Part shown: piece after piece, positions 16,519 to 34,688 of the stretch | Layout: each line of letters begins with the position of its first letter | How positions within the stretch are numbered: the first letter of the stretch is position 1 | Origin: a virus | DNA length: 64,000 nt | IMG/VR virus record: IMGVR_UViG_3300042346_000326 | Coordinates: 33,381 to 97,380 of that record | Strand: one strand, 5' to 3' | Notes under the pieces: generated by a model | The model's database searches: none | The model's input: only the letters and a program-made list of their open reading frames with translations | What the model was told of the DNA's origin: nothing | Position numbers and translations under genes: made by a program

Positions 16519-17491
16519 TAAGTTCGAGTGGGTTCTTTGGAGAGCCTCTCGGCTCTACCTCTGACCACGCCCCAAGTATGCCATAGATTGACCGACTCAG
16601 TTTGCCACCCCTATTAAGAGCGTGTTTATGGGGCTTTTAGCCCCTAGAGCCCCTGCCCCCCAAGTAACCCACCTGCTATCACCACCGCTTCAGAAGAGTT
16701 AGTTAGTGAATGAGCGTGAGCCCCCACATAACTAATCGCGCCAAAGAGTTTTTCTTTTCAGTAATGACTAATACAAAGATAGTAATAGATAGATAGAAGT
16801 TAATAATAGAGATAGATAAATACCCACATAAGTAACTCGGTAACTACACTCAATTAGTCAATAATCAAATAAACACATAACAAAGTTTGTAATAGCAAAT
16901 AATTAAGTAACTTCTGACCTTCTGCTGTCGTATCTAAGCGTAGAAGAGTAAAAAGTAAGTAACTCCGCCGTTTAATTCTGGAAGTTACTTACTGACTAAC
17001 TCAGATAGCCCGTAACTAACTAGCCACCACCACCGCCATAACCGCCACCTGATACATCTTGTCGTTACAAGGAGAAGTGACTCATCTACCTACTAGGGAA
17101 TAACTGAGTTAGTCATAGTGATAGAAGATAATTGAAACAATTAGTAATAGATACATAACAACACATAACTAATAACGCGTTGCGTTACTAATGCGTGATT
17201 ATGTGATAACAACTGACTAGGTGACTCGTTGGCTTGGTGGTATCCGCACAGACCATGTTGCTAAATAAACAGTAGCCGAAGTGTTGTCACCAAAGTTGTC
17301 ACCAAGTTATTTGTTACACCTGATAACAACGCATGAGTTGAACAACAACCACCTGATTAGTAGTCAGGTGGTAGGTGTTCTCATGTGTAACTAACAACAA
17401 CCCCCCCACCATTAAACGGAAAACGCCAAATGAACAGCCAGGTGAGACACATGGTTGAGGGGTTGGGGCCAGGGCAGTAGCCAAAAGACGG

Positions 17492-17761: not shown

Positions 17762-17812
17762 GCTAGTGCGGTTGACGATGTGGGGCCAAGGCAGTAGCCG
17801 TAAACTAGCCAC

Positions 17813-18118
17813 ATGGCAGACTTTCTTAGCAGAGTGCAGTTCAAAAATCACTCTACTCCCTATGAGGACAAGATTGGGGCCCATTTAGGCAAGCAGCAGG
17901 TTGGATGGCTAGACCTTGATAAAGATACGGGTGTAGTTAATGAGGTATATGTTAAGGAGCAGCACCAGGGTAAGGGTATCGCCACAGGCATGTGGAAGCA
18001 CGCCCAGGAGTCTGGCTTAAATCCAAGACATTCTGATACTCGTTCCGAGTCTGGAGATGCTTGGGCGCAATCTCTTTATCAAAAGGGACTGGCTCCAGAA
18101 CCAGAGAGTATGGAATAA
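17813..18118 (+). CDS. GNAT acetyltransferase
   Basis: VYVKEQHQGKGIATGMW acetyl-CoA motif A; N-terminal FLSRVQF. Confidence 0.8.
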   Translation: MADFLSRVQFKNHSTPYEDKIGAHLGKQQVGWLDLDKDTGVVNEVYVKEQHQGKGIATGMWKHAQESGLNPRHSDTRSESGDAWAQSLYQKGLAPEPESME

Positions 18119-18444
18119 TGAGCAATCTAGGCCCTCAATTCGACCCCTTACAAGAGGCTAGGAGTATCAAGAACAATAAGAGCCGCCTAACTAGGACCCT
18201 AAAGGCCGTAGGACTAGAGCCACGGAGACGATTTAAGTCAAGAAGCGGAAAGGTATCGATGCAATCTGCAGGATTGGTATACACCGCTACAGATAGCAAC
18301 AGTACAACGGTCCACTACGCCACTGGTAGTCCTGGAGATAACAACGTGGAACCATATCATCAGCGGATACTAAAGGCCCTTATCGATGCCGACTACAACG
18401 CTTCAATGAAGGATGGCAAAATTCACGTACAGCACTCTATGTGA
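18118..18444 (+). CDS. hypothetical protein with N-terminal NLGPQF tag
   Basis: ATG overlaps the upstream TAA (TAATG); start reassigned from 18061. Confidence 0.65.
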   Translation: MSNLGPQFDPLQEARSIKNNKSRLTRTLKAVGLEPRRRFKSRSGKVSMQSAGLVYTATDSNSTTVHYATGSPGDNNVEPYHQRILKALIDADYNASMKDGKIHVQHSM

Positions 18445-18456
18445 TAGGCTCTGTCT

Positions 18457-18618
18457 ATGAGCATCGAGAAGCGAATCGGCAAGGTATGGATATATTTTGG
18501 TTGGAACTTTAGAAGAGTTGCATTTGGAATCTCAGTAGACCGCTTTGAGATAGCGTTTGATTTTCTATTCTGGTACTTCACAATTGAATTTTGGCCAATA
18601 TTTTCCAGTAACGACTAG
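18457..18618 (+). CDS. small aromatic/hydrophobic protein (53 aa)
   Basis: MSIEKRIGKVWIYFGWNF...; TGA-TAGGCT -10 ends 6 nt upstream (leaderless). Confidence 0.55.
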   Translation: MSIEKRIGKVWIYFGWNFRRVAFGISVDRFEIAFDFLFWYFTIEFWPIFSSND

Positions 18619-18682
18619 TACCTCCCCTAGCAGATAAGATTTCACGCTATCTTTTTTAGGCAGTAGCCTCATAATACTCTTT

Positions 18683-18799
18683 ATGAGTAGCCTGTCTGCA
18701 AACCAATTCGTAATGCCTAAAGAGCAGTATGTAAATGTCGCCATGCAGATGATGCCTCCATCAGGGGCCACTAACACAGCAAGTAGCACCAAGGCATGA
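18683..18799 (+). CDS. 38-aa peptide with SLSANQF tag
   Basis: MSSLSANQFVMPKEQ...; CATAAT -10 upstream; ATGA overlap with next gene; not in the ORF track. Confidence 0.6.
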   Translation: MSSLSANQFVMPKEQYVNVAMQMMPPSGATNTASSTKA

Positions 18800-19329
18800 G
18801 CAGATACGCAGAGTTCAGTGATTCAGCAGGTCGCCACTATGTAGAAGGCGAGATGCCCGAACAAGTCAAATATCGTCACAAGTTATCTAACTTTGGAGAA
18901 CCTAGGCGCATCTCGGTCTATGACCCTAGTGACTCAACGCCACGTCGTGCTAGTGAACAGGGCCATATAGAAGAACATCCAAAAGGTGAACCTGGTCTTG
19001 TGGGATATGCAGATATCTATCGTGAAAAAGGCGGCGAACAATTCGGCACTCTAACAAATGCAGAGGGAAAGAAAGAGCCACTCATTAGTAAGGCCCATAC
19101 CAATATCGGCTTTGTAACAGTAGAACCCAAACATCGTGGTGGCGGCATATCAAAACAACTAATTAACTATGTAGATAAGACCACACCAAAAGATGCCCAA
19201 GTAAATTTTGGTGAGATTGCACACATCGGCATGGCCAAGATTGCTTCAAAGATGCAGGCAGAAAACCCAAGTCGTATTCATGCAAAAGACTTGTGGTACT
19301 ACAAAGACAAACTTAAGGAAGGCCAATGA
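18796..19329 (+). CDS. GNAT acetyltransferase
   Basis: IGFVTVEPKHRGGGISKQLI. Confidence 0.75.
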   Translation: MSRYAEFSDSAGRHYVEGEMPEQVKYRHKLSNFGEPRRISVYDPSDSTPRRASEQGHIEEHPKGEPGLVGYADIYREKGGEQFGTLTNAEGKKEPLISKAHTNIGFVTVEPKHRGGGISKQLINYVDKTTPKDAQVNFGEIAHIGMAKIASKMQAENPSRIHAKDLWYYKDKLKEGQ

Positions 19330-19721
19330 AGAAGACGCCTCCTCCTAAAAATCCTAATGACAGAAGAAACCTGTCGGGGGTTCAGTTTAGATACTTTCCA
19401 CCTGAAGATAAGTACTCATTTCATGAACTACATGCCATCTCTCCAGATGCTTATAACAAGAACAGCAGAACAGGAAAAGGATTAGTCGTCGGGCGGTTGC
19501 AGTGGCATCCAAAGTCTGGTGAGGTCAATTGGGTGCGCACACACGAGAACTATCGAGGCCTAGGTGTCGCATCTACGTTATGGGAAAAGGCTAATAAGTT
19601 ATCTGCCGATACTGGAATAAGAGCACCCAAACATTCTAAGCACCGCACTGACCAGGGCGATGCGTGGGCAAAATCTGTCGGGGGCGTTACGCCATCACGA
19701 GCCAACTATGAGGAGTGGTGA
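19326..19721 (+). CDS. GNAT acetyltransferase (paralog of 17813)
   Basis: VRTHENYRGLGVASTLW..HSKHRTDQGDAWA; NLSGVQF. Confidence 0.8.
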   Translation: MKKTPPPKNPNDRRNLSGVQFRYFPPEDKYSFHELHAISPDAYNKNSRTGKGLVVGRLQWHPKSGEVNWVRTHENYRGLGVASTLWEKANKLSADTGIRAPKHSKHRTDQGDAWAKSVGGVTPSRANYEEW

Positions 19722-20224
19722 TGAGTAACCTAGGTCGCCAGTGGAAACAGGACCCACTCATCATGACGCCAAAAGAATTAGAAGGCCATGTTCAAGATAC
19801 TCTAAAGTCAAATCCATTTAAAACAACTACAGAGAGAATTACAGATAACCCACATGGCGCTTGCTATGACGCTTCCTGTTTAATTCATGGCTATCTGCCA
19901 CATGGCTCACACGTCGCTGTCTATGGTGGAAAGCACCACGACCCAAAGTCTACAAATCCAGGAGACTGGTACAGCAATCACTTTGTACATCACGTACCTA
20001 CTACAGAGGGTATGCACGCTGTTGATTTGACGCATCGTCAATTTGATTCATCAGAGAAGACTCCCCTAGTAGAGCCACTACAGAAGTTTCAAGATAGAAA
20101 CGTAATGAAGGGCTTTAGAACTCTGCGCACTGATGCAGAGCACGCAAAGTTATACACAGAGGGTAGAAAGACCAAGCCTCTAGGTAAGAAGATGGCTAGA
20201 GAATTGCGCAGGGATGTCACATGA
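19721..20224 (+). CDS. papain/transglutaminase-like Cys-His-Asp enzyme
   Basis: GACYDAS..NHFV..AVDLTHRQF; N-terminal NLGRQW. Confidence 0.6.
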   Translation: MSNLGRQWKQDPLIMTPKELEGHVQDTLKSNPFKTTTERITDNPHGACYDASCLIHGYLPHGSHVAVYGGKHHDPKSTNPGDWYSNHFVHHVPTTEGMHAVDLTHRQFDSSEKTPLVEPLQKFQDRNVMKGFRTLRTDAEHAKLYTEGRKTKPLGKKMARELRRDVT

Positions 20225-20502
20225 GTGCATCAGATAACCTATCAAGCCAATTGTTTCATGGAACAAGGGCAAAGATAAAGGGACAGATAATTAACCCAGG
20301 TCCATCTGGATTTGCGTATGCAACAACTGACAGAGGTTCTGCAGAATTATTCGGCAAAACAAAGATGCCAGAAGGTGAACTAGGAGATAACAAGGTCTAT
20401 CGCGTTATGTCATTAGGAGAAACGACTACCAAGCCAGGTAACTTTAAGGGTGAGACTCACCACATCTCCGACACTGGCTTCTTGATATTAGGTGAAGCAT
20501 GA
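20221..20502 (+). CDS. ADP-ribosyltransferase-like (Arr / H-Y class)
   Basis: LFHGT..AYATTD..A..VYRV. Confidence 0.6.
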   Translation: MSASDNLSSQLFHGTRAKIKGQIINPGPSGFAYATTDRGSAELFGKTKMPEGELGDNKVYRVMSLGETTTKPGNFKGETHHISDTGFLILGEA

Positions 20503-20927
20503 GCGCCCTATCTAACGAGTTATTTTTTGAAGCACATCGCGGACTTCGTCTAAAGGGCAAAGAAAAAGTTAATAAAGACGAATTAGGTATGCACTGGTCT
20601 GCAGATAGAGATAAAGCAGATGAGTTTGCAACAAAGCACATAAATTGGCCTGAGTGGGAACATGGCAAGACTTATCATGCCCAGATACCTGTATCTGCTG
20701 TAGAGACTGGATTCACTCGTCTACGTGACAGTGGCTTCGCTAACTTTGCTGGTAAAGACCCATTAGGTGAAAAGGAAGTGCCAGTAAAAGAGGGCGCTAC
20801 AGTAAAGGTCACAGGCGTTACTAGCCATCGTAGAACATACCTAGGACCTAACAAGACCGTTAATCAGGGAACGGCATTGAAGTCACGTACCCGTCGTTAC
20901 AACCCACCAAGAGAGATGAAGGCATGA
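20499..20927 (+). CDS. ADP-ribosyltransferase-like (R-S-E class)
   Basis: HRG..HWS..A..FA..EKEV. Confidence 0.65.
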   Translation: MSALSNELFFEAHRGLRLKGKEKVNKDELGMHWSADRDKADEFATKHINWPEWEHGKTYHAQIPVSAVETGFTRLRDSGFANFAGKDPLGEKEVPVKEGATVKVTGVTSHRRTYLGPNKTVNQGTALKSRTRRYNPPREMKA

Positions 20928-21109
20928 CTTGTCGTCATGTCTATGAATATGTTGGGGCGGCAATATGTCCCGCGTGCGGGCGCGATACGCACGAACCAGA
21001 CACCGAACTTCATAACAAGTTGTTCAAAGAGCATTACGAGCAGGGCCGTCATCTGGTATACAAGTGTCCTGTAGAGGGCGGCACTATACGAGGTTGGTGG
21101 AGCATATGA
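20924..21109 (+). CDS. small Zn-ribbon protein
   Basis: CRH..CPACG; coupled on both sides. Confidence 0.55.
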   Translation: MTCRHVYEYVGAAICPACGRDTHEPDTELHNKLFKEHYEQGRHLVYKCPVEGGTIRGWWSI

Positions 21110-21537
21110 GTGCACCTTTATCTGAACCGTTGTTTCATGGTTCAAGCCATCCCTTTAACAAGGGCGACATTATTAAGCCTATGGAGATGGACCACGCACA
21201 TGCCACAACAGATAAGGCATATGCCAATAACTACTCGACATTAGATGCAGAACGAGATTACAGTAGAGACCCAAAGTCTTTATTTACATATACCTACAAA
21301 GTCAGTCCTGTAGATGAAAAAGAGATGCACTCAGAGACAGAACCGTGGAGAACTGACCCAGTTAAAAAGAACCTACGTCTTGCTAAAGACATTCCTAATA
21401 TCTATGTGTCCAAAAAAGGATTTAAAGTAGAGGGCATCGAGTCAATGAGGGCGCACCCACAGATAGTTACAGATAACAAGGTTCTAGAGAACGCTCTGAG
21501 CGCTTGGAGACGAAAACGTGACAGAGAAGAGTCCTAA
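21106..21537 (+). CDS. ADP-ribosyltransferase-like (Arr-like)
   Basis: PLSEPLFHGS..GDIIKP..AHATTD..YTYKVSP; start reassigned from 21064. Confidence 0.6.
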   Translation: MSAPLSEPLFHGSSHPFNKGDIIKPMEMDHAHATTDKAYANNYSTLDAERDYSRDPKSLFTYTYKVSPVDEKEMHSETEPWRTDPVKKNLRLAKDIPNIYVSKKGFKVEGIESMRAHPQIVTDNKVLENALSAWRRKRDREES

Positions 21538-21661
21538 TCCTGCTAGGGTCAAGAAGGTCCAGGAATTAAGGCGCTCTAACGCTGCTACCCCTGTCCCCTC
21601 TAAAAAGGTCTATACAAGGAAGAAAAAGCATTCAAAGGGCGCAAATCGGGCATCTCTTTAG
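21518..21661 (+). CDS. small basic protein (47 aa)
   Basis: VQELRRSNAA..SKKVYTRKKKH; not in the ORF track. Confidence 0.5.
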   Translation: MTEKSPNPARVKKVQELRRSNAATPVPSKKVYTRKKKHSKGANRASL

Positions 21662-21719: not shown

Positions 21720-22271
21720 ATGACAACAATCATTGGAGTTCAGTACGAAGACCACTGCCTATTTATGGCAGATAATCAAGTTACATTAGATGGTGGTCGT
21801 CGTTACAAACACCCCGATATGAAAAAGATTAGCAAGGTAGGCGAATACCTTGTTGCAGGTTCTGGCGAAGTTGCACCATGCGATATTGCGCAACATCTAT
21901 GGACGCCACCTGCTATGTCTGCCAAAGACAGAAAAGATACTTATCACTTTGTTATTGCTAAGTTGATGCCATCGCTACGCAAATGTCTTGAAGACAATGG
22001 CTACGATTTCGATGAAGGCAAATCTGACGGCAAGTCAGGTGAATCACGATTCAATCTGCTTGTTGCCGCTAATGGTCAGATATTCGACATTGCCGATGAT
22101 ATGTCGGTCTGTATGTCAGATGCTGGCTTCTATGGCGTTGGCTCTGGCTCTCCATATGCATTAGGTGCTCTCTATGGTGGTGTTAAGCCAGAAAAGGCTA
22201 TGGCTGTTGCTGAGAAGATAGATGTCAATACTTCTGGGCCGTTTCAGAAAGAAGTTCAGTACAAGAAGTAA
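21720..22271 (+). CDS. HslV/proteasome-beta-like Ntn protease
   Basis: MTTIIGV (N-terminal Thr), ADNQVT, K, GSGSPYALGAL; GGGGAG RBS. Confidence 0.85.
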   Translation: MTTIIGVQYEDHCLFMADNQVTLDGGRRYKHPDMKKISKVGEYLVAGSGEVAPCDIAQHLWTPPAMSAKDRKDTYHFVIAKLMPSLRKCLEDNGYDFDEGKSDGKSGESRFNLLVAANGQIFDIADDMSVCMSDAGFYGVGSGSPYALGALYGGVKPEKAMAVAEKIDVNTSGPFQKEVQYKK

Positions 22272-22926: not shown

Positions 22927-23433
22927 ATGATTGTTAGCCTTAGTAAAGAAGAAGTCCGTGCATGTGCGGACATTGCGTTAAATCGTTGGATGATGAAGTG
23001 GGGCTCTATTGACCGCCCTAATTATGCTGGCGATAATAAAGCAAAACTAGAACCAGAAATTGCAGCCAACGTTAGAACTATCGTTGCAGAATACGCTGTG
23101 GCAAAACTTTATAAAATGCCACTAACATTTCCGTTCTATCCAAATGAAGAACATCCATTTAGACAGCACATTCCTGATGTTGGCTCTAATGTTGAGGTTA
23201 AGAGTGTTAGAACACGAGATGAGATTCCAGTCTTTCCTAAAGACATTAAACCTGGTCGCCTTCTCGTGGGCGCACGCGTACTCGACCGCGACTACTACTC
23301 AGAGGTAGAGGTATACGGTTGGCTACGAATGGAAGATGTGCAACGAGATGAATGGAAATACGTACCAGAGGGTTCATGGCGTATTCCATTGACTGAGTTC
23401 AACGACTCAATACCAGAGGTCGTGTATGTCTAA
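22927..23433 (+). CDS. hypothetical protein, possible PD-(D/E)xK fold
   Basis: PDVG..VEVKS; leaderless TGC-TAGGCT promoter. Confidence 0.5.
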   Translation: MIVSLSKEEVRACADIALNRWMMKWGSIDRPNYAGDNKAKLEPEIAANVRTIVAEYAVAKLYKMPLTFPFYPNEEHPFRQHIPDVGSNVEVKSVRTRDEIPVFPKDIKPGRLLVGARVLDRDYYSEVEVYGWLRMEDVQRDEWKYVPEGSWRIPLTEFNDSIPEVVYV

Positions 23434-25073: not shown

Positions 25074-25277
25074 GTGACTGTTACAAGTGCTAAGGTAAGC
25101 CTAAAAGTAAACGACCGTTGTGACAAATGCGGTGCTCAGGCAATGATTCGTGCTACTTTACTTACTGGAGAGTTGTACTTCTGTGGGCACCACGCTCGTC
25201 AGATTGCAACTCCTCTTGTACTTAAATCAATTGAAGTCTATGACCCACAAGGTGTGTTTAATTATGGAAAACAATAG
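25074..25277 (+). CDS. small actinobacterial-type Zn-binding protein
   Basis: DRCDKCGAQA..GELYFCGHH. Confidence 0.7.
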   Translation: MTVTSAKVSLKVNDRCDKCGAQAMIRATLLTGELYFCGHHARQIATPLVLKSIEVYDPQGVFNYGKQ

Positions 25278-25620
25278 ATATGTGCTTGGTCAGGGGATTT
25301 TTGGAGGAATTAAGGGAAGTTATGGTAGATATAGCGTGGGACCTCGTGTGAACAGTCTTTCAACACAGTTTAATGATTACATGGATACTGTAGAAGAAAG
25401 TAAACGTCGTCGTTTCAAGAGAAAAAAAGAATCAGGTTATTCAGGCGCAGGTTTCTGGTTTGGTCTTTACCCAAACATGGTTGCAGGTATGGGCTCAGGA
25501 ACAGGTGTGATGAATCCTGACCAAGTCCCTGCAGATGCTGGTTCTGGACAAACTGCTGCAACAACAGATGGTATGGGAATGGGTGGAACATCTTTTAATG
25601 GCGCTGGTGGTGTTAGTTAA
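25264..25620 (+). CDS. Gly-rich hypothetical protein
   Basis: MENNRY start; coupled to next ORF. Confidence 0.55.
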   Translation: MENNRYVLGQGIFGGIKGSYGRYSVGPRVNSLSTQFNDYMDTVEESKRRRFKRKKESGYSGAGFWFGLYPNMVAGMGSGTGVMNPDQVPADAGSGQTAATTDGMGMGGTSFNGAGGVS

Positions 25621-25897: not shown

Positions 25898-28567
25898 TTG
25901 AAATTGCTGCGTGCATCCGCAGAACAATATGGTTTCTTTAGTCGTTTAAACTTTTTACTAGGAGCAGGATTTATTTATCTGCTTCTTTCGATTCTTCCTG
26001 CTTATGCAGAGGAAACAACTTCTGCACCACCTGCGCCACAAGAAACAACAGCGCCAACCCCAGAGCCCACACAAAGTCCAACGTCATCTACTTCTTCTCC
26101 TGAACCTTCTCCAACGCCAACAGCCGAACCTTCACCGAGCGAAGCATCACCTTCACCAACACAAAGTCCAGAGCCAAGCCCAACCCCAACCCCAACAGAA
26201 ACCACAGCGCCTGAGACATCTCCTACTCCTTCCACATCCACTTCGACTGAGCCCGCTCCAAGTCCAACTCCAACGCCAGAATCTTCGCCTGCTTCCACTT
26301 CAACTCCGACTCCAACTCCTGAACCTTCTCCAACTCCAACCGCGACCTCGACTCCAGCGCCAACACCCGCTCCATCTTCTGAGCCGAGTCCAACTCAATC
26401 ACCGACTCCAGAGCCTTCACCTTCCGCTTCAGTGGCTCCGACGCCCATATCCAGCCCAGAACAATCCCCGTCCCCAAGCAATACAACACAAACGCCGACT
26501 GCCACCACACCTGAAACACCTACAGTCACCTCCGTACAAGCAAAAATTGAGACGGCAACTGTAACGCTAAATGCTGCAATTGAATCGTCAACTGTCACAC
26601 AACAAGCGGCTGCTGCTACTCAAATAACTGAGGCTCAAACTGCTATCACTGTGGCAGAGAGCGCCACGGTCACTGCTGTTGCTGCGCAGGCTACTGTTAA
26701 TGCTCTTTTAGATGCGCCAGAAAACACAAAAGTGTACACAACTGATGGTTATGTGGCTCCCGTTGCTCCGCAAACACCCACAGTTACAACAACAACTTTG
26801 CCTGTGATGTACGACGCATCAACTAAAATTCAAACTCCTTTTGATATAAAAATGGGTGATGTGGTATACAACGGTCAGGGTGCAGATAGCCAAATTTATG
26901 TAACTTCAAAGGCAACTATTACCTTTGGCACTGGAAACCATATCTGGTGGGATTTCCCTGCTGGACCAAGCATTTCAGTATTTGCCAGCGACTATATGAA
27001 TGCTGGTCAAGGCACATCTACTGTAGTAACTACCACAGATACAACTTTAGAAGTTGATTGGAACCTTAAAAAGTTTGGTGACAACAACAGCCCTATAACT
27101 AACATTAATTGGAAAATGACTGTCAACCCTACAACTGGGGAATGGACTGGTATAGGAACTGTTGCTGGCAATACTACTAATCTTTGGTATCCGCAACGCA
27201 CTGGTGTTAGAGAAACTGCAGGCGAGCCTATAAAACCAATGACAAATGTAACTAATGAGACCATTGCTGCGGCTCAAGAAACAGCGGCAACAAAACTTGC
27301 TACCGCAAATGCTTTAGCAAATACTGCAGTAGAAAAAGTAGAAACCGCTGTTACAGTTCTTCAAACTCCGATTCCTCAAACTCCGCCGACTCCAACACCT
27401 GAGCCAACTCCCGCACCGCAGCCAGAGCCAACACCACAACCACAGCCAGAGACGCAACCACAGCCAACACCACAACCCGAACCTTCACCTGAACCTCCTA
27501 CAAATCCGTCAACCGACCCTGCGCCAACCAATCCAACTCCTGAGCCCACGGTTCCAGGACCTCAACCTGAGCCTCAACCTCAACCAGAGCCTGTTGTACC
27601 GCAACCCGAACCAGAGCCTGAGCCTCCTGTGACGGAAGAGGATGACCCTGAAGAACCTGAAGTTGCTCCAGAGAATCCTGAAGAGTCTTCTGAAGAGGAA
27701 ACAGAAAGTCAGGAAGAGGCTCCAGAGGATTCTCCTGAAGATGACACTCCCGAAGACACTCAAGACGATTCAGAGAGTCCTCAAGACACTCCTGAATCTT
27801 CCGATAATCAACAGCCAGACTCATCAGAAGACCCTACAGACTCAGAAACAGAACCGACCCCAACAGAAGAAGAGACACAGCCCATATCGCCTGAAGAAGG
27901 CGACGAAACTGACGAGTCTTCTGTCGAACCCCAACCTGAAGAATCAGAAGAGCCAGAAACAGACAACCAAGAGCAATATAATCAGTCGGAAGAAACACAA
28001 GATACTCCTATCGTTGAACCAAGTAACCCAGAGCCTACACCAGAAACAGTTATCTCCGACGCACTTTCTGACGGTCAATTAACAACCGAAGAAAAAGAAG
28101 TCATAGTTACTGCTTTGGTCGCTAGTCTAGCACCAGGTGAGGCTATCTCTAGCGAAACTTTAATAGAGGCTGGAATTACTTATGAAGACTTACCTCCACA
28201 AACACCTGTTGACGTTAGAACCGATGAGAACGGTAATGCAGTTATTATTACTGCAGAAGTTGCAGCCGCCCTTGAACTAATCGAAAATCCATCTGAATTA
28301 ATTGGCGAATTATTTACTGACCCAGGTCAAGTTCTTCTTGCACTGGGAAGTATCGGTGCAGATATGTCAGAAGAAGAACGAGAAGAAGCAACAAAGATGG
28401 TCGTAGCAACTGTAGTCGCTGCAGGTGCTGCTATTAATGCTGCAACAACCGCAGCAGCCGCAGCAGCCGCTGCTGCAACAACAACGGGAGGGTCAACTGG
28501 AGGCAGTAGTTCAGGTGGCGGAGCGCCAACTGGAGATAGCAAGGCAGTTAGGAGACGCCGCAAATGA
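25898..28567 (+). CDS. large secreted/membrane-anchored Pro-Thr-rich and acidic surface protein
   Basis: Signal peptide ending AYA-EE; PT/PE repeats; central beta-rich domain; D/E tract; C-terminal hydrophobic stretch and RRRRK. Confidence 0.75.
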   Translation: MKLLRASAEQYGFFSRLNFLLGAGFIYLLLSILPAYAEETTSAPPAPQETTAPTPEPTQSPTSSTSSPEPSPTPTAEPSPSEASPSPTQSPEPSPTPTPTETTAPETSPTPSTSTSTEPAPSPTPTPESSPASTSTPTPTPEPSPTPTATSTPAPTPAPSSEPSPTQSPTPEPSPSASVAPTPISSPEQSPSPSNTTQTPTATTPETPTVTSVQAKIETATVTLNAAIESSTVTQQAAAATQITEAQTAITVAESATVTAVAAQATVNALLDAPENTKVYTTDGYVAPVAPQTPTVTTTTLPVMYDASTKIQTPFDIKMGDVVYNGQGADSQIYVTSKATITFGTGNHIWWDFPAGPSISVFASDYMNAGQGTSTVVTTTDTTLEVDWNLKKFGDNNSPITNINWKMTVNPTTGEWTGIGTVAGNTTNLWYPQRTGVRETAGEPIKPMTNVTNETIAAAQETAATKLATANALANTAVEKVETAVTVLQTPIPQTPPTPTPEPTPAPQPEPTPQPQPETQPQPTPQPEPSPEPPTNPSTDPAPTNPTPEPTVPGPQPEPQPQPEPVVPQPEPEPEPPVTEEDDPEEPEVAPENPEESSEEETESQEEAPEDSPEDDTPEDTQDDSESPQDTPESSDNQQPDSSEDPTDSETEPTPTEEETQPISPEEGDETDESSVEPQPEESEEPETDNQEQYNQSEETQDTPIVEPSNPEPTPETVISDALSDGQLTTEEKEVIVTALVASLAPGEAISSETLIEAGITYEDLPPQTPVDVRTDENGNAVIITAEVAAALELIENPSELIGELFTDPGQVLLALGSIGADMSEEEREEATKMVVATVVAAGAAINAATTAAAAAAAAATTTGGSTGGSSSGGGAPTGDSKAVRRRRK

Positions 28568-33035: not shown

Positions 33036-33110
33036 TTTCTATGCTTCGCCTCTCTACAGGTCTAGCGTTGACCCACCCAAAAGGTGGGTCACGCTGTTTA
33101 ATGGGTGCAT

Positions 33111-34688
33111 ATGGAAGAAGATAAGTTTGAAGAAATAAATCCTGAATTCTATCTTCAGGATGAACAACCTGTTGAAGAAGATGTAGAGGAACCTCTTGAT
33201 GAGTTATCCCAACAGTTTGTAGACAAACTCATTGACAAGATGCTTGAGTTTCTTAAAGTACTTGTTGGGCATGACCTGCACCCTTATCAAAAGCCTCTTG
33301 CTCGTCGCATTATGGAATCAGTTATCATTAATGATGGCGAAGAAATAACAGCGTTAGCATCGCGTCAGTCAGGTAAGTCAGAGACGGTTGCAGACACGGT
33401 GGCTACTATGATGATTCTTCTTCCACGCCTTGCAAAGTTGTATCCAGACCTTCTTGGAAAATTTAAAGATGGAATTTGGGTTGGATTGTTTGCACCAACC
33501 GAAGCACAGGCTGAGACTCTCTTTGGTCGCACTGTTACTCGTTTAAGTTCAGAGCGTGCTGTTGAAATCATGGATGACCCAGAAATTGACGACACAGCCG
33601 CACGCGTAGGCGGGGTAACACGTCAGATTCGTTTAAAGAAATCTGGTTCTACTATCACAATGATGACCGCTAACCCAAGAGCAAAGATTGAGTCTAAGTC
33701 ATTCCATCTTGTAATCATTGATGAGTGTCAAGAAGCAGATGACTTTGTTGTGTCGAAGTCCATCTCTCCTATGTTGGCTTACTATGCAGGAACAATGGTT
33801 AAAACGGGAACGCCAACAACAAGTAAGAATAACTTCTATCGTGCTATACAGTTAAACCGTAGACGACAAACAGGACGCGCTGCAAGGCAAAACCACTTTC
33901 AATGGGATTGGAAAGACGTTGCTAAATTCAACCCAAATTATGAAAAGTTTATTCGTAAAGAAATGCTGCGTATTGGGGAAGACTCTGATGAATTTCAAAT
34001 GTCATATAATTGCAAATGGTTGCTAGAACGAGGAATGTTTGTTACGTCATCTATAATGGACGAACTAGGTGACACTTCACAAGAGTTAGTTAAGTCTTGG
34101 CACAAGACTCCTGTTGTTGTTGGAGTTGACCCTGCACGTAAGACTGACTCAACAGTTGTTACGATTGTGTGGGTTGATTGGGATAGACCTGATGAGTTCG
34201 GATACTTTGACCATCGCATTCTCAATTGGTTAGAGATGCAGGGAGATGATTGGGAAGAGCAGTACTATCAAATAGTTAACTTCCTTGAGAACTACGACGT
34301 ACTTGCTGTTGGTGTTGATGCTAACGGTGTAGGTGATGCAGTCGCACAACGACTTAAGTTACTCTTACCAAGAGCAGAGGTTATGTCCTTGACATCTAGC
34401 CCATCAGAACAGTCGAAGCGTTGGAAACACCTACAAGCACTACTCCAACGCAAAATGATTTCTTGGCCTGCCCATGCTAAAACTAGGCGCCTAAGAACAT
34501 GGAAACGGTTCTATCAACAGATGGTTGACGCAGAGGTTCAGTACAAAGGTCCTAACTTCCTTGTAGCCGCTCCTGATGAGTCTTACGCACACGATGACTT
34601 TGTAGACTCCCTTGCTATAGCCTGTTCCTTAACTCAGGACCTCGTTATGCCAGAAGTTGTGGCTTCAAGTAATCCTTTCTTTGGTTAG
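33111..34688 (+). CDS. terL: terminase large subunit
   Basis: Walker A SRQSGKS, Walker B IIDECQ, TGTP, nuclease GVDPA..D..HDDFVDS. Confidence 0.93.
   Translation: MEEDKFEEINPEFYLQDEQPVEEDVEEPLDELSQQFVDKLIDKMLEFLKVLVGHDLHPYQKPLARRIMESVIINDGEEITALASRQSGKSETVADTVATMMILLPRLAKLYPDLLGKFKDGIWVGLFAPTEAQAETLFGRTVTRLSSERAVEIMDDPEIDDTAARVGGVTRQIRLKKSGSTITMMTANPRAKIESKSFHLVIIDECQEADDFVVSKSISPMLAYYAGTMVKTGTPTTSKNNFYRAIQLNRRRQTGRAARQNHFQWDWKDVAKFNPNYEKFIRKEMLRIGEDSDEFQMSYNCKWLLERGMFVTSSIMDELGDTSQELVKSWHKTPVVVGVDPARKTDSTVVTIVWVDWDRPDEFGYFDHRILNWLEMQGDDWEEQYYQIVNFLENYDVLAVGVDANGVGDAVAQRLKLLLPRAEVMSLTSSPSEQSKRWKHLQALLQRKMISWPAHAKTRRLRTWKRFYQQMVDAEVQYKGPNFLVAAPDESYAHDDFVDSLAIACSLTQDLVMPEVVASSNPFFG

Follow-up and report, generated by a model that had tools for sequence, protein, structure and literature searches.

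The internal proteins of T-even phages are diverse defence proteins that have only a capsid-targeting sequence (CTS) in common (PMC3012670), and in T4 this sequence reads MKTYQEFIAE (PMC8442874). Phage ADP-ribosyltransferases (ARTs), Nudix and Macro proteins are argued to be often packaged in the virion, above all in myoviruses (PMC9503650), and the polyvalent proteins are predicted to enter the cell together with the DNA and to act soon afterwards (PMC5512222, PMC9503650). In this work, we analyzed a window of 64,000 nucleotides, which represents bases 33381-97380 of the complete 97,380-bp IMG/VR virus record IMGVR_UViG_3300042346_000326 with direct terminal repeats. Between positions 17,813 and 21,537 of this window lies a cassette of ten co-directional genes, g1-g10, in which otherwise dissimilar proteins begin with the same short peptide, hereafter the tag. 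We show that the tag forms a unit distinct from the cargo folds, that selection on its amino acids maintains it, that cargoes exchange it and that it occurs only in viruses. Very probably it is a functional address that is read by a common partner.

The core of the tag is (D/E)-(N/H)-L-(S/G)-x(1-2)-Q-(F/W/L), usually given as MSASDNLSxxQF; the peptide also occurs in shortened versions, MSNLGxQF and MSAPLSxPLF, and has a more loosely matching relative, MS(K/R)xxEF (tag-2). A first-pass annotation of the window had quoted nine N-termini with a common motif, and all nine were found, at 17813, 18118, 18683, 18796, 19326, 19721, 20221, 20499 and 21106. We scanned a strict motif, fitted to the cassette genes, over 1107 ATG starts (at least 30 codons) of the whole 97-kb genome, and it occurred at nine of them, seven in the 3.3-kb cassette and two in spurious small open reading frames (ORFs). 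Since the strict pattern was derived from the cassette genes, the relatives provide the independent test. These related loci (given L-numbers) are IMG/VR and metagenome contigs with a guanine-cytosine (GC) content of 37-67 %, and their genes were taken from simple ORF calls. Here, genes without a homologue in the window likewise begin with the tag, and a loose regular expression matched 126 of the 759 proteins in tag-bearing loci, compared with 2 of the 75 proteins of the Streptomyces myovirus BRock and 5 of the 494 encoded by bacterial control loci. The motif is therefore enriched at gene starts in relatives, as the first-pass annotation had anticipated.

With a DNA pattern for MSASDNL we obtained 22 IMG/VR loci (about four of them chance matches), a second pattern for MSAQDNLS gave 20 further loci, and a high-GC pattern gave seven metagenome contigs with up to 67 % GC. 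The 155 non-identical tagged proteins pooled in this way, with cargoes of 38-248 residues, formed 36 BLAST clusters at E 1e-3, about three of which are false positives. Judged by these sequence comparisons, the tag appears on about 33 BLAST-unrelated cargo groups, although some clusters may be remote kin. Two proteins carry the tag internally, so the very N-terminus is not required: in g5 the tag begins at residue 15, and in a conserved late-region core protein (25264-25620, +) the stretch NSLSTQF lies about 30 residues in and is followed by the basic patch RRRFKRKK and a Gly-rich tail. Homologues of the late-region protein in L007, L010, L014 and L041 start MSNLS(H/R)QF, and among the tagged proteins this one may be the oldest.

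When the DNA pattern of the tag was searched for in 596 Gb of prokaryote genomes, 57 matches were obtained, against about 50 by a rough chance estimate. Because these matches were at chance level and none was a real tag, we consider the tag virus-specific. In GenBank phages, neither DNA nor protein searches detected anything related to the cassette or to the tagged ARTs, and BRock, the closest cultured relative by capsid protein, has neither ART-like nor HslV-like genes. A search for distant loci with two high-GC tagged ARTs as queries found none, a protein atlas search gave weak leads, and a search of a literature library for the tag strings found no paper. Among the 67 % GC contigs, L114 (508-1559) and L117 (2-433) carry MSNLSPHQF on a 248-residue HGT protein, MSAQDHLSPFQF and MSASDHLSPAQF, and the tagged genes in L114 adjoin a recombinase-like gene. 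High-GC and possibly temperate elements thus bear the tag as well.

Three similar-looking sequences were considered and set aside. The stretch DELSQQF in TerL (33105-33230, +; residues ~30-37) is conserved in lake relatives, but it forms a conserved helix that reads PNSQEF in the tag-less BRock, and such a match is expected by chance. The glycosylation sequon D/E-x-N-x-S/T is broken by the frequent DHLS variant, and the Prp/L27 cut motif of Firmicutes belongs to the wrong host group and has a different spacing.

The codon usage of the tag reveals what is being conserved. At its conserved positions, Leu and Ser are each encoded by all six of their codons (for Ser, both TCN and AGY), and Gln and Phe by both of theirs; adjoining tagged genes of one genome show several synonymous differences, and the tag persists over contigs from 37 % to 67 % GC. 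Since the codons are scrambled while the peptide is kept over this range, selection must act on the amino acids. On account of this scrambling, the main explanation cannot be a DNA repeat, a recombination box or a translation or mRNA element. In the ART alignment, the Leu of the tag is as conserved as the catalytic His.

The tag can also be told apart from the folds that follow it. In AlphaFold2 (AF2) models, g10 and g8 begin with 6-8 residues of coil or short helix, residues 1-8 of g10 having no regular secondary structure. Strand 1, which spans residues 9-13 in g10, takes in just the final one or two residues of the tag; the predicted local distance difference test (pLDDT) value falls below 50 at residues 1-3 of g10 and 1-6 of g8. 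Several ARTs contain 3-6 extra residues between the Q-F of the tag and the HGT strand. It had been considered that the motif might be just the first strand of each fold; instead, the final aromatic residue alone merges into strand 1.

Judged by sequence identity, the array is hypervariable between close relatives. Whereas the anchor genes g12 and g14 are 88-96 % identical to those of the window, identities in the array range from 31 % to 95 %, and some array genes have no counterpart. L002/L009, with anchors in this 88-96 % range, lacks g2 and g4, has a paralogue-level match to g1, and contains genes without a window counterpart that start MSLNDKQF, MSNLGKQF and MSAPLSGPLF. Orthologues also swap their tags. 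The g10 protein starts MSAPLSEPLF in the window and MSASDNLSQPLF in the L003 orthologue, while g6 starts MSNLGRQW here, MSASDNLGKQW in L002 and MSKSEEF in distant homologues. The tag-2 form is itself recurrent, on six or seven cargo groups, and it can take the place of the main tag on one and the same cargo, as happens in the g6 family, an ART and a 74-residue family. The cargo groups, the hypervariable locus and the tag swaps of orthologues bear out the earlier description of a modular tag-plus-cargo array of unrelated small enzymes, and MSRYAEF of g4, which had been listed as a loose match, belongs to the tag-2 form.

Two of the cargoes, g7 (20221-20502, +; 93 residues) and g10 (21106-21537, +; 143 residues), are Arr-like ARTs. 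The full tag of g7 is MSASDNLSSQLF, and this protein is included in profiles A2 and A4. Profile A4, built from 70 sequences of the tagged ART family, matched Arr-2 (9iba, E 9e-10) and Arr (2hw2, 1.9e-8) in the PDB, and Pfam Arr-ms detected 3 of 13 family members (best 3e-5); the small profile A2 had no sequence match in the PDB. The AF2 model of g10 (pLDDT 77.5) had Arr structures 9iaf and 2hw2 as its top Foldseek matches (E 2e-4, probability 1.0), with template modelling scores of 0.48-0.51 that point to a minimal ART fold, and a viral structure library returned uncultured-phage proteins and a phage Arr for the g7/g10 group. The family keeps the HGT motif, in which the His is invariant, and a Tyr that is nearly invariant among the 70 sequences. 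On these profiles and models, g7 and g10 are Arr-family minimal ARTs for which catalysis is predicted; their substrate need not be a rifamycin.

The g8 protein (20499-20927, +; 142 residues, tag MSALSNELF) has, with moderate confidence, an ART-like fold of the R-type. Its AF2 model (pLDDT 71) aligned with TreX (Z 7.2) and pertussis S1 (Z 6.9) in VIA-align, both Z values being below 8; ARTs made up most of the top rows, and Foldseek gave E 0.03. ARTs of the R-S-E clade are marked by Arg, Ser-Thr-Ser and Glu motifs; in the g8 family R14 and W33 are invariant, a W-S/T pair and a basic RYNPPR tail are conserved, and no Glu is invariant. Three ART-like proteins had been proposed at first reading; two are thus assigned to the Arr family and g8 is moderately supported.

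The tagged ART family extends far beyond the window. Searching with a profile of these tagged ARTs gave 1030 representatives, and among the 150 best matches the tag starts 105 of the 130 small proteins. Giant proteins of 1200-4000 residues match this profile only from position 13, the residue after the tag. These giant homologues carry Arr-ms, NUDIX, 2H and ART-PolyVal domains, and they are therefore polyvalent proteins.

The phage itself is, by its capsid sequence, a relative of BRock-like myoviruses: the capsid protein is 62 % identical to that of BRock and its kin. Because BRock is a Streptomyces myovirus, this kinship suggests, by inference, an actinobacterial host. We propose that the cassette would be a rapidly exchanging library of small effectors, namely Arr- and R-type ARTs, GNATs, a Cys/His enzyme and others, in which each effector bears a portable N-terminal address peptide and one common partner would read it. 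By analogy, the phage head during its assembly is the leading candidate for this partner. Like the T4 internal proteins and Alt, the enzymes would then enter the particle and reach the host together with the DNA, and the array would correspond to the giant polyvalent proteins with the same ART domain, taken apart into separate genes.

Packaging is proposed here because of the T4 analogy and because the same ART domain occurs in polyvalent proteins that are thought to be injected. Head loading is also supported by the myovirus kinship, by the tagged late-region protein and by L012, in which a tagged ART gene sits between the terminase and portal genes. Resting as it does on analogy, head or virion loading is our leading reading but a tentative one. 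A more specific form of it, which is equally doubtful, is that MSASDNLSxxQF and MS(K/R)xxEF constitute a cleavage-independent virion-loading signal of actinobacterial phages from 37 % to 67 % GC, marking an open-ended library of injected enzymes. If this were true, sequence alone would reveal which proteins uncultured phages inject, and the tag could be used as a portable packaging handle.

Several results weigh against head loading. A search for the HK97-type (S78) head protease PF04586 gave no match in the phage, while its controls were positive, and MuF was not detected in the phage; the search for the T4-type (S77) protease PF03420 was uninformative, with no match in the phage and none in the control either. 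Position counts revealed no conserved Glu and no L/I-x-E cut site at or after the tag, and the T4 mechanism of scaffold core plus cleavage is therefore not mirrored. The closer analogy with T4 drawn by the first-pass annotation fails on these features and on the main tag itself, which is unlike that of T4. In addition, tagged proteins did not differ from other proteins in isoelectric point and were not unusually basic, and no cultured relative with the tag was found in GenBank searches or in BRock. Finally, the conservation of the tag from 37 % to 67 % GC could point equally to a conserved host partner.

That last observation would fit a tag that is a short linear motif, by which the effectors are brought to one conserved actinobacterial machine, such as the ribosome, RNA polymerase or an unfoldase adaptor, so that after synthesis in the infected cell the enzymes modify the same neighbourhood. 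The tag resembles docking motifs in being a disordered polar stretch with two hydrophobic anchors, and the internal tags of g5 and the 25264 protein show that a free N-terminus is unnecessary. Upstream of the array there is a long non-coding region and then a divergent minus-strand operon, and a divergent regulatory region is a typical neighbour of early host-takeover genes; a promoter scan, a terminator scan and a comparison of upstream regions yielded no usable timing signal. On the other side, the tag does not fit the known bacterial hub motifs considered here, namely the beta-clamp motif QL(S/D)LF, the PIP box and ClpX N-motifs, and it lies nearly always in the first 12 residues, which a docking motif would not need. 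We consider docking to a host hub somewhat unlikely.

The gene directly downstream of the array region suggests another partner. The g12 gene (21720-22271, +) encodes an HslV/proteasome-like N-terminal nucleophile peptidase (phrog_1040, E 1.6e-26; 22.5 in Pfam Proteasome, slightly over the cut-off of 22.4) whose sequence starts M-T-T, with an N-terminal Thr nucleophile, and it is present in 7/7 of the larger tag-bearing records. The tag could be a propeptide or degron for g12 or for a host protease, by which toxic enzymes are activated or their lifetime is limited. A tag ending in F, L or W would fit a chymotrypsin-like cut, a cut before this terminal residue would expose an N-degron residue, and BRock lacks both the tag and the peptidase. 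However, homologues of g12 occur in 86 GenBank phages (of E. coli and Microbacterium, and a lake actinophage), all of which lack relatives of the tagged ARTs, and no tag was found within 40 kb around the HslV-like gene of DSL-LC01, a cultured lake actinophage. There is also no residue preference after the tag, and the tagged records with the peptidase all come from one clade, so the link may be synteny only. Because its homologues occur in these 86 phages without relatives of the tagged ARTs, g12 is not a dedicated reader and remains a weak candidate for reading the tag. Overall, we regard processing or turnover as unlikely. A scan of prokaryote genomes for the HslV-like protein of g12 found none, and the phage role of this type of peptidase appears to be uncharacterised.

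It is distinctly unlikely that a single phage protein binds or modifies the tag on all cargoes, either as a shared modifying enzyme, for which one of the near-ubiquitous GNATs would be a candidate, or as a holder that keeps toxic enzymes inactive. GNATs of the g5 or g4 family do accompany most arrays, but they bear the tag themselves and so look like cargo, and no gene outside the syntenic core of the clade could be tied to the tag, the contigs of other clades being too short. Least probable by far, and largely refuted, is a tag without a function of its own, inherited through ancestry or recombination at gene starts or as the first strand of a fold: the merging of its last residue with strand 1, a faintly similar DNY..Q..F before the YHGT motif of Arr-2 and the mostly tagged largest cargo family would agree with it, whereas the scrambled synonymous codons with kept amino acids even in neighbouring genes, the roughly 33 unrelated cargo groups, the Leu as conserved as the catalytic His, the tag-less homologues that begin directly after the tag and the 3-6-residue linkers before the HGT strand all speak against it.

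The remaining array genes comprise further enzymes and several small proteins. At the start of the cassette, g1 (17813-18118, +) encodes a 101-residue GNAT with the tag MADFLSRVQF, which scored above the cut-offs of Pfam Acetyltransf_7, _10 and _1, and its similarity to g5 is at paralogue level. The g5 gene (19326-19721, +) encodes a 131-residue GNAT (Acetyltransf_1 22.5 against a cut-off of 20.7) in which RRNLSGVQF follows a 14-residue extension; both extension and tag are kept in L002, L003, L032, L033, L036 and L047. The 177-residue product of g4 (18796-19329, +) scored 18.9 and 18.2 bits, below the Pfam cut-offs, and is GNAT-like only; its family starts M(S)ARY(A/S)EF in eight loci. Thus, of three GNATs named in the first-pass annotation, g1 and g5 stand and g4 falls short.

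The g6 gene (19721-20224, +) encodes a 167-residue protein of an unassigned Cys/His family. Alignment A3 shows C48, H56, H64, H87, H90 and D102 as invariant, so the Cys, His and Asp residues of the suggested Cys-His-Asp enzyme are in place; neither the PDB nor Pfam gave a match for this protein. At residues 9-22 of g6 (19745-19790), the tag is followed by a module, W-(E/K)-Q-x-P-(L/M)-(I/F)-x-(T/S)-x-(K/S)-E-(L/I), that is shared between the g6 family and a large, unrelated-looking cargo group (cluster 2). It could represent either an extension of the tag or a small domain common to both groups.

The 108-residue product of g2 (18118-18444, +) had no family match in profile searches; MSNLG(P/Q)QFD is kept in its homologues down to 44 % identity, the short tag here being MSNLGPQF. 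The g3 gene (18683-18799, +) encodes only 38 residues with the tag MSSLSANQF. Its C-terminal part is 75 % identical in L002, where ALSGEQF is internal, and similar ORFs occur in L040 and L050. An untagged 53-residue ORF (18457-18618, +), which was absent from the first-pass list, also lies within the array; its hydrophobic and aromatic product starts MSIEKRIGKVW, it has a 69 % identical copy in L002/L009, and small ORFs resembling it (GWGKWDSWGFGISYCHY) flank the arrays in L016, L018, L019 and L115. The 61-residue g9 protein (20924-21109, +) is Cys-rich and zinc-ribbon-like; it is untagged here and conserved in many arrays, and its L003 orthologue starts MSNLT. The array ends with g11 (21518-21661, +), a very basic 47-residue protein (isoelectric point 11.5) that is 91-94 % identical in relatives.

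From 18683 onward the genes are coupled by ATGA or TGATG stop-start overlaps, and they therefore form one operon. The 11-mer AGGCAGTAGCC occurs at 17789-17799 and 18658-18668 (+), 14-15 nt before the ATG of g1 and g3, which are the array genes that have neither overlap coupling nor a Shine-Dalgarno sequence; a copy with one mismatch lies at 17472. This 11-mer could be a promoter or an initiation element.

Downstream of the cassette, the order is the basic 47-residue gene, the HslV/proteasome-like peptidase, Hsp20 and a CHAP endolysin, followed by the genes for packaging and head, which comprise terminase, an SPP1-type portal, a 254-residue scaffold-like gene and the capsid gene. The head module runs from portal through the scaffold-like gene to capsid, with no protease gene in between. 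The g14 gene (22927-23433, +; 168 residues) adjoins the arrays and is 76-93 % conserved across the clade. It has no Pfam or PHROG match and contains a PD...E-x-K-like stretch (IPDVGSNVEVK), which suggests a nuclease fold. Further downstream, 25898-28567 (+) encodes an 889-residue protein, conserved in relatives, with a signal-peptide-like start and a Pro/Thr/Ser-rich linker of about 250 residues; this linker is responsible for the abrupt fall in GC skew (-0.26) at 26-28 kb.

Should the tag prove to be an address label, sequence alone would suffice to list the accessory effectors of a large group of uncultured lake and soil phages, and the logic of one tag for many cargoes that is known from T-even internal proteins would recur in a different lineage, with a different peptide and apparently with no head protease. 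One tagged cargo family alone counts about 1000 representatives at 50 % identity. Minimal Arr-like ADP-ribosyltransferases of about 90-140 residues would emerge as common phage weapons. Single-domain tagged genes and giant polyvalent proteins would then be linked as two solutions to one delivery problem. Once found, the reader of the tag would be a testable entry into the takeover of abundant freshwater Actinobacteria.

Among known systems, the T-even CTS and internal proteins (PMC3012670, PMC8442874) resemble the cassette in that a peptide of about ten residues is the sole common part of unrelated small proteins. In both cases the set is diverse, being related to counter-defence in T-even phages and lying at a fast-changing locus here, and both sets contain an ADP-ribosyltransferase, which is Alt in T4. 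The start of the T4 CTS, M-K-T-Y-Q-E-F, also resembles tag-2, which may be chance. However, the tag here has no L/I-x-E cut site, the main tag is unrelated in sequence, the phage is BRock-like rather than T4-like, and the cargoes are mostly enzymes rather than basic DNA-binding inhibitors. Polyvalent proteins (Iyer et al. 2017, PMC5512222; PMC9503650) share the repertoire of Arr-type ART, ART-PolyVal, NUDIX and 2H domains, and the tagged-ART profile matches these giants directly, but their domains are fused in one tagless chain of 1200-4000 residues, whereas here separate genes of 38-177 residues give each domain its own tag. Arr itself (PDB 2hw2, 9iba; Pfam Arr-ms) agrees with the g7/g10 family in profile, fold, HGT motif and conserved Tyr, while the phage proteins are shorter (93-143 residues), very divergent and tagged.

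In phiKZ- and SPN3US-like giant phages (PMC5694885, PMC7411985), N-terminal segments likewise address many head-internal proteins. Those segments are longer and are removed by the head protease at a Glu-containing motif, and our checks for the S78 protease and for a Glu site found neither here. The head-protease motif of the phiKZ/SPN3US type is S/A/G-x-E. Encapsulin cargo-loading peptides offer a further parallel, as short conserved peptides on unrelated enzymes that bind the interior of an HK97-fold shell and stay uncleaved; they are usually C-terminal, have another sequence and serve a bacterial compartment rather than a virion. Taken together, the principle of a shared tag is already known from T4, whereas what is new here is the peptide itself, its phage lineage, a cargo rich in enzymes, the apparent absence of cleavage and the scale.

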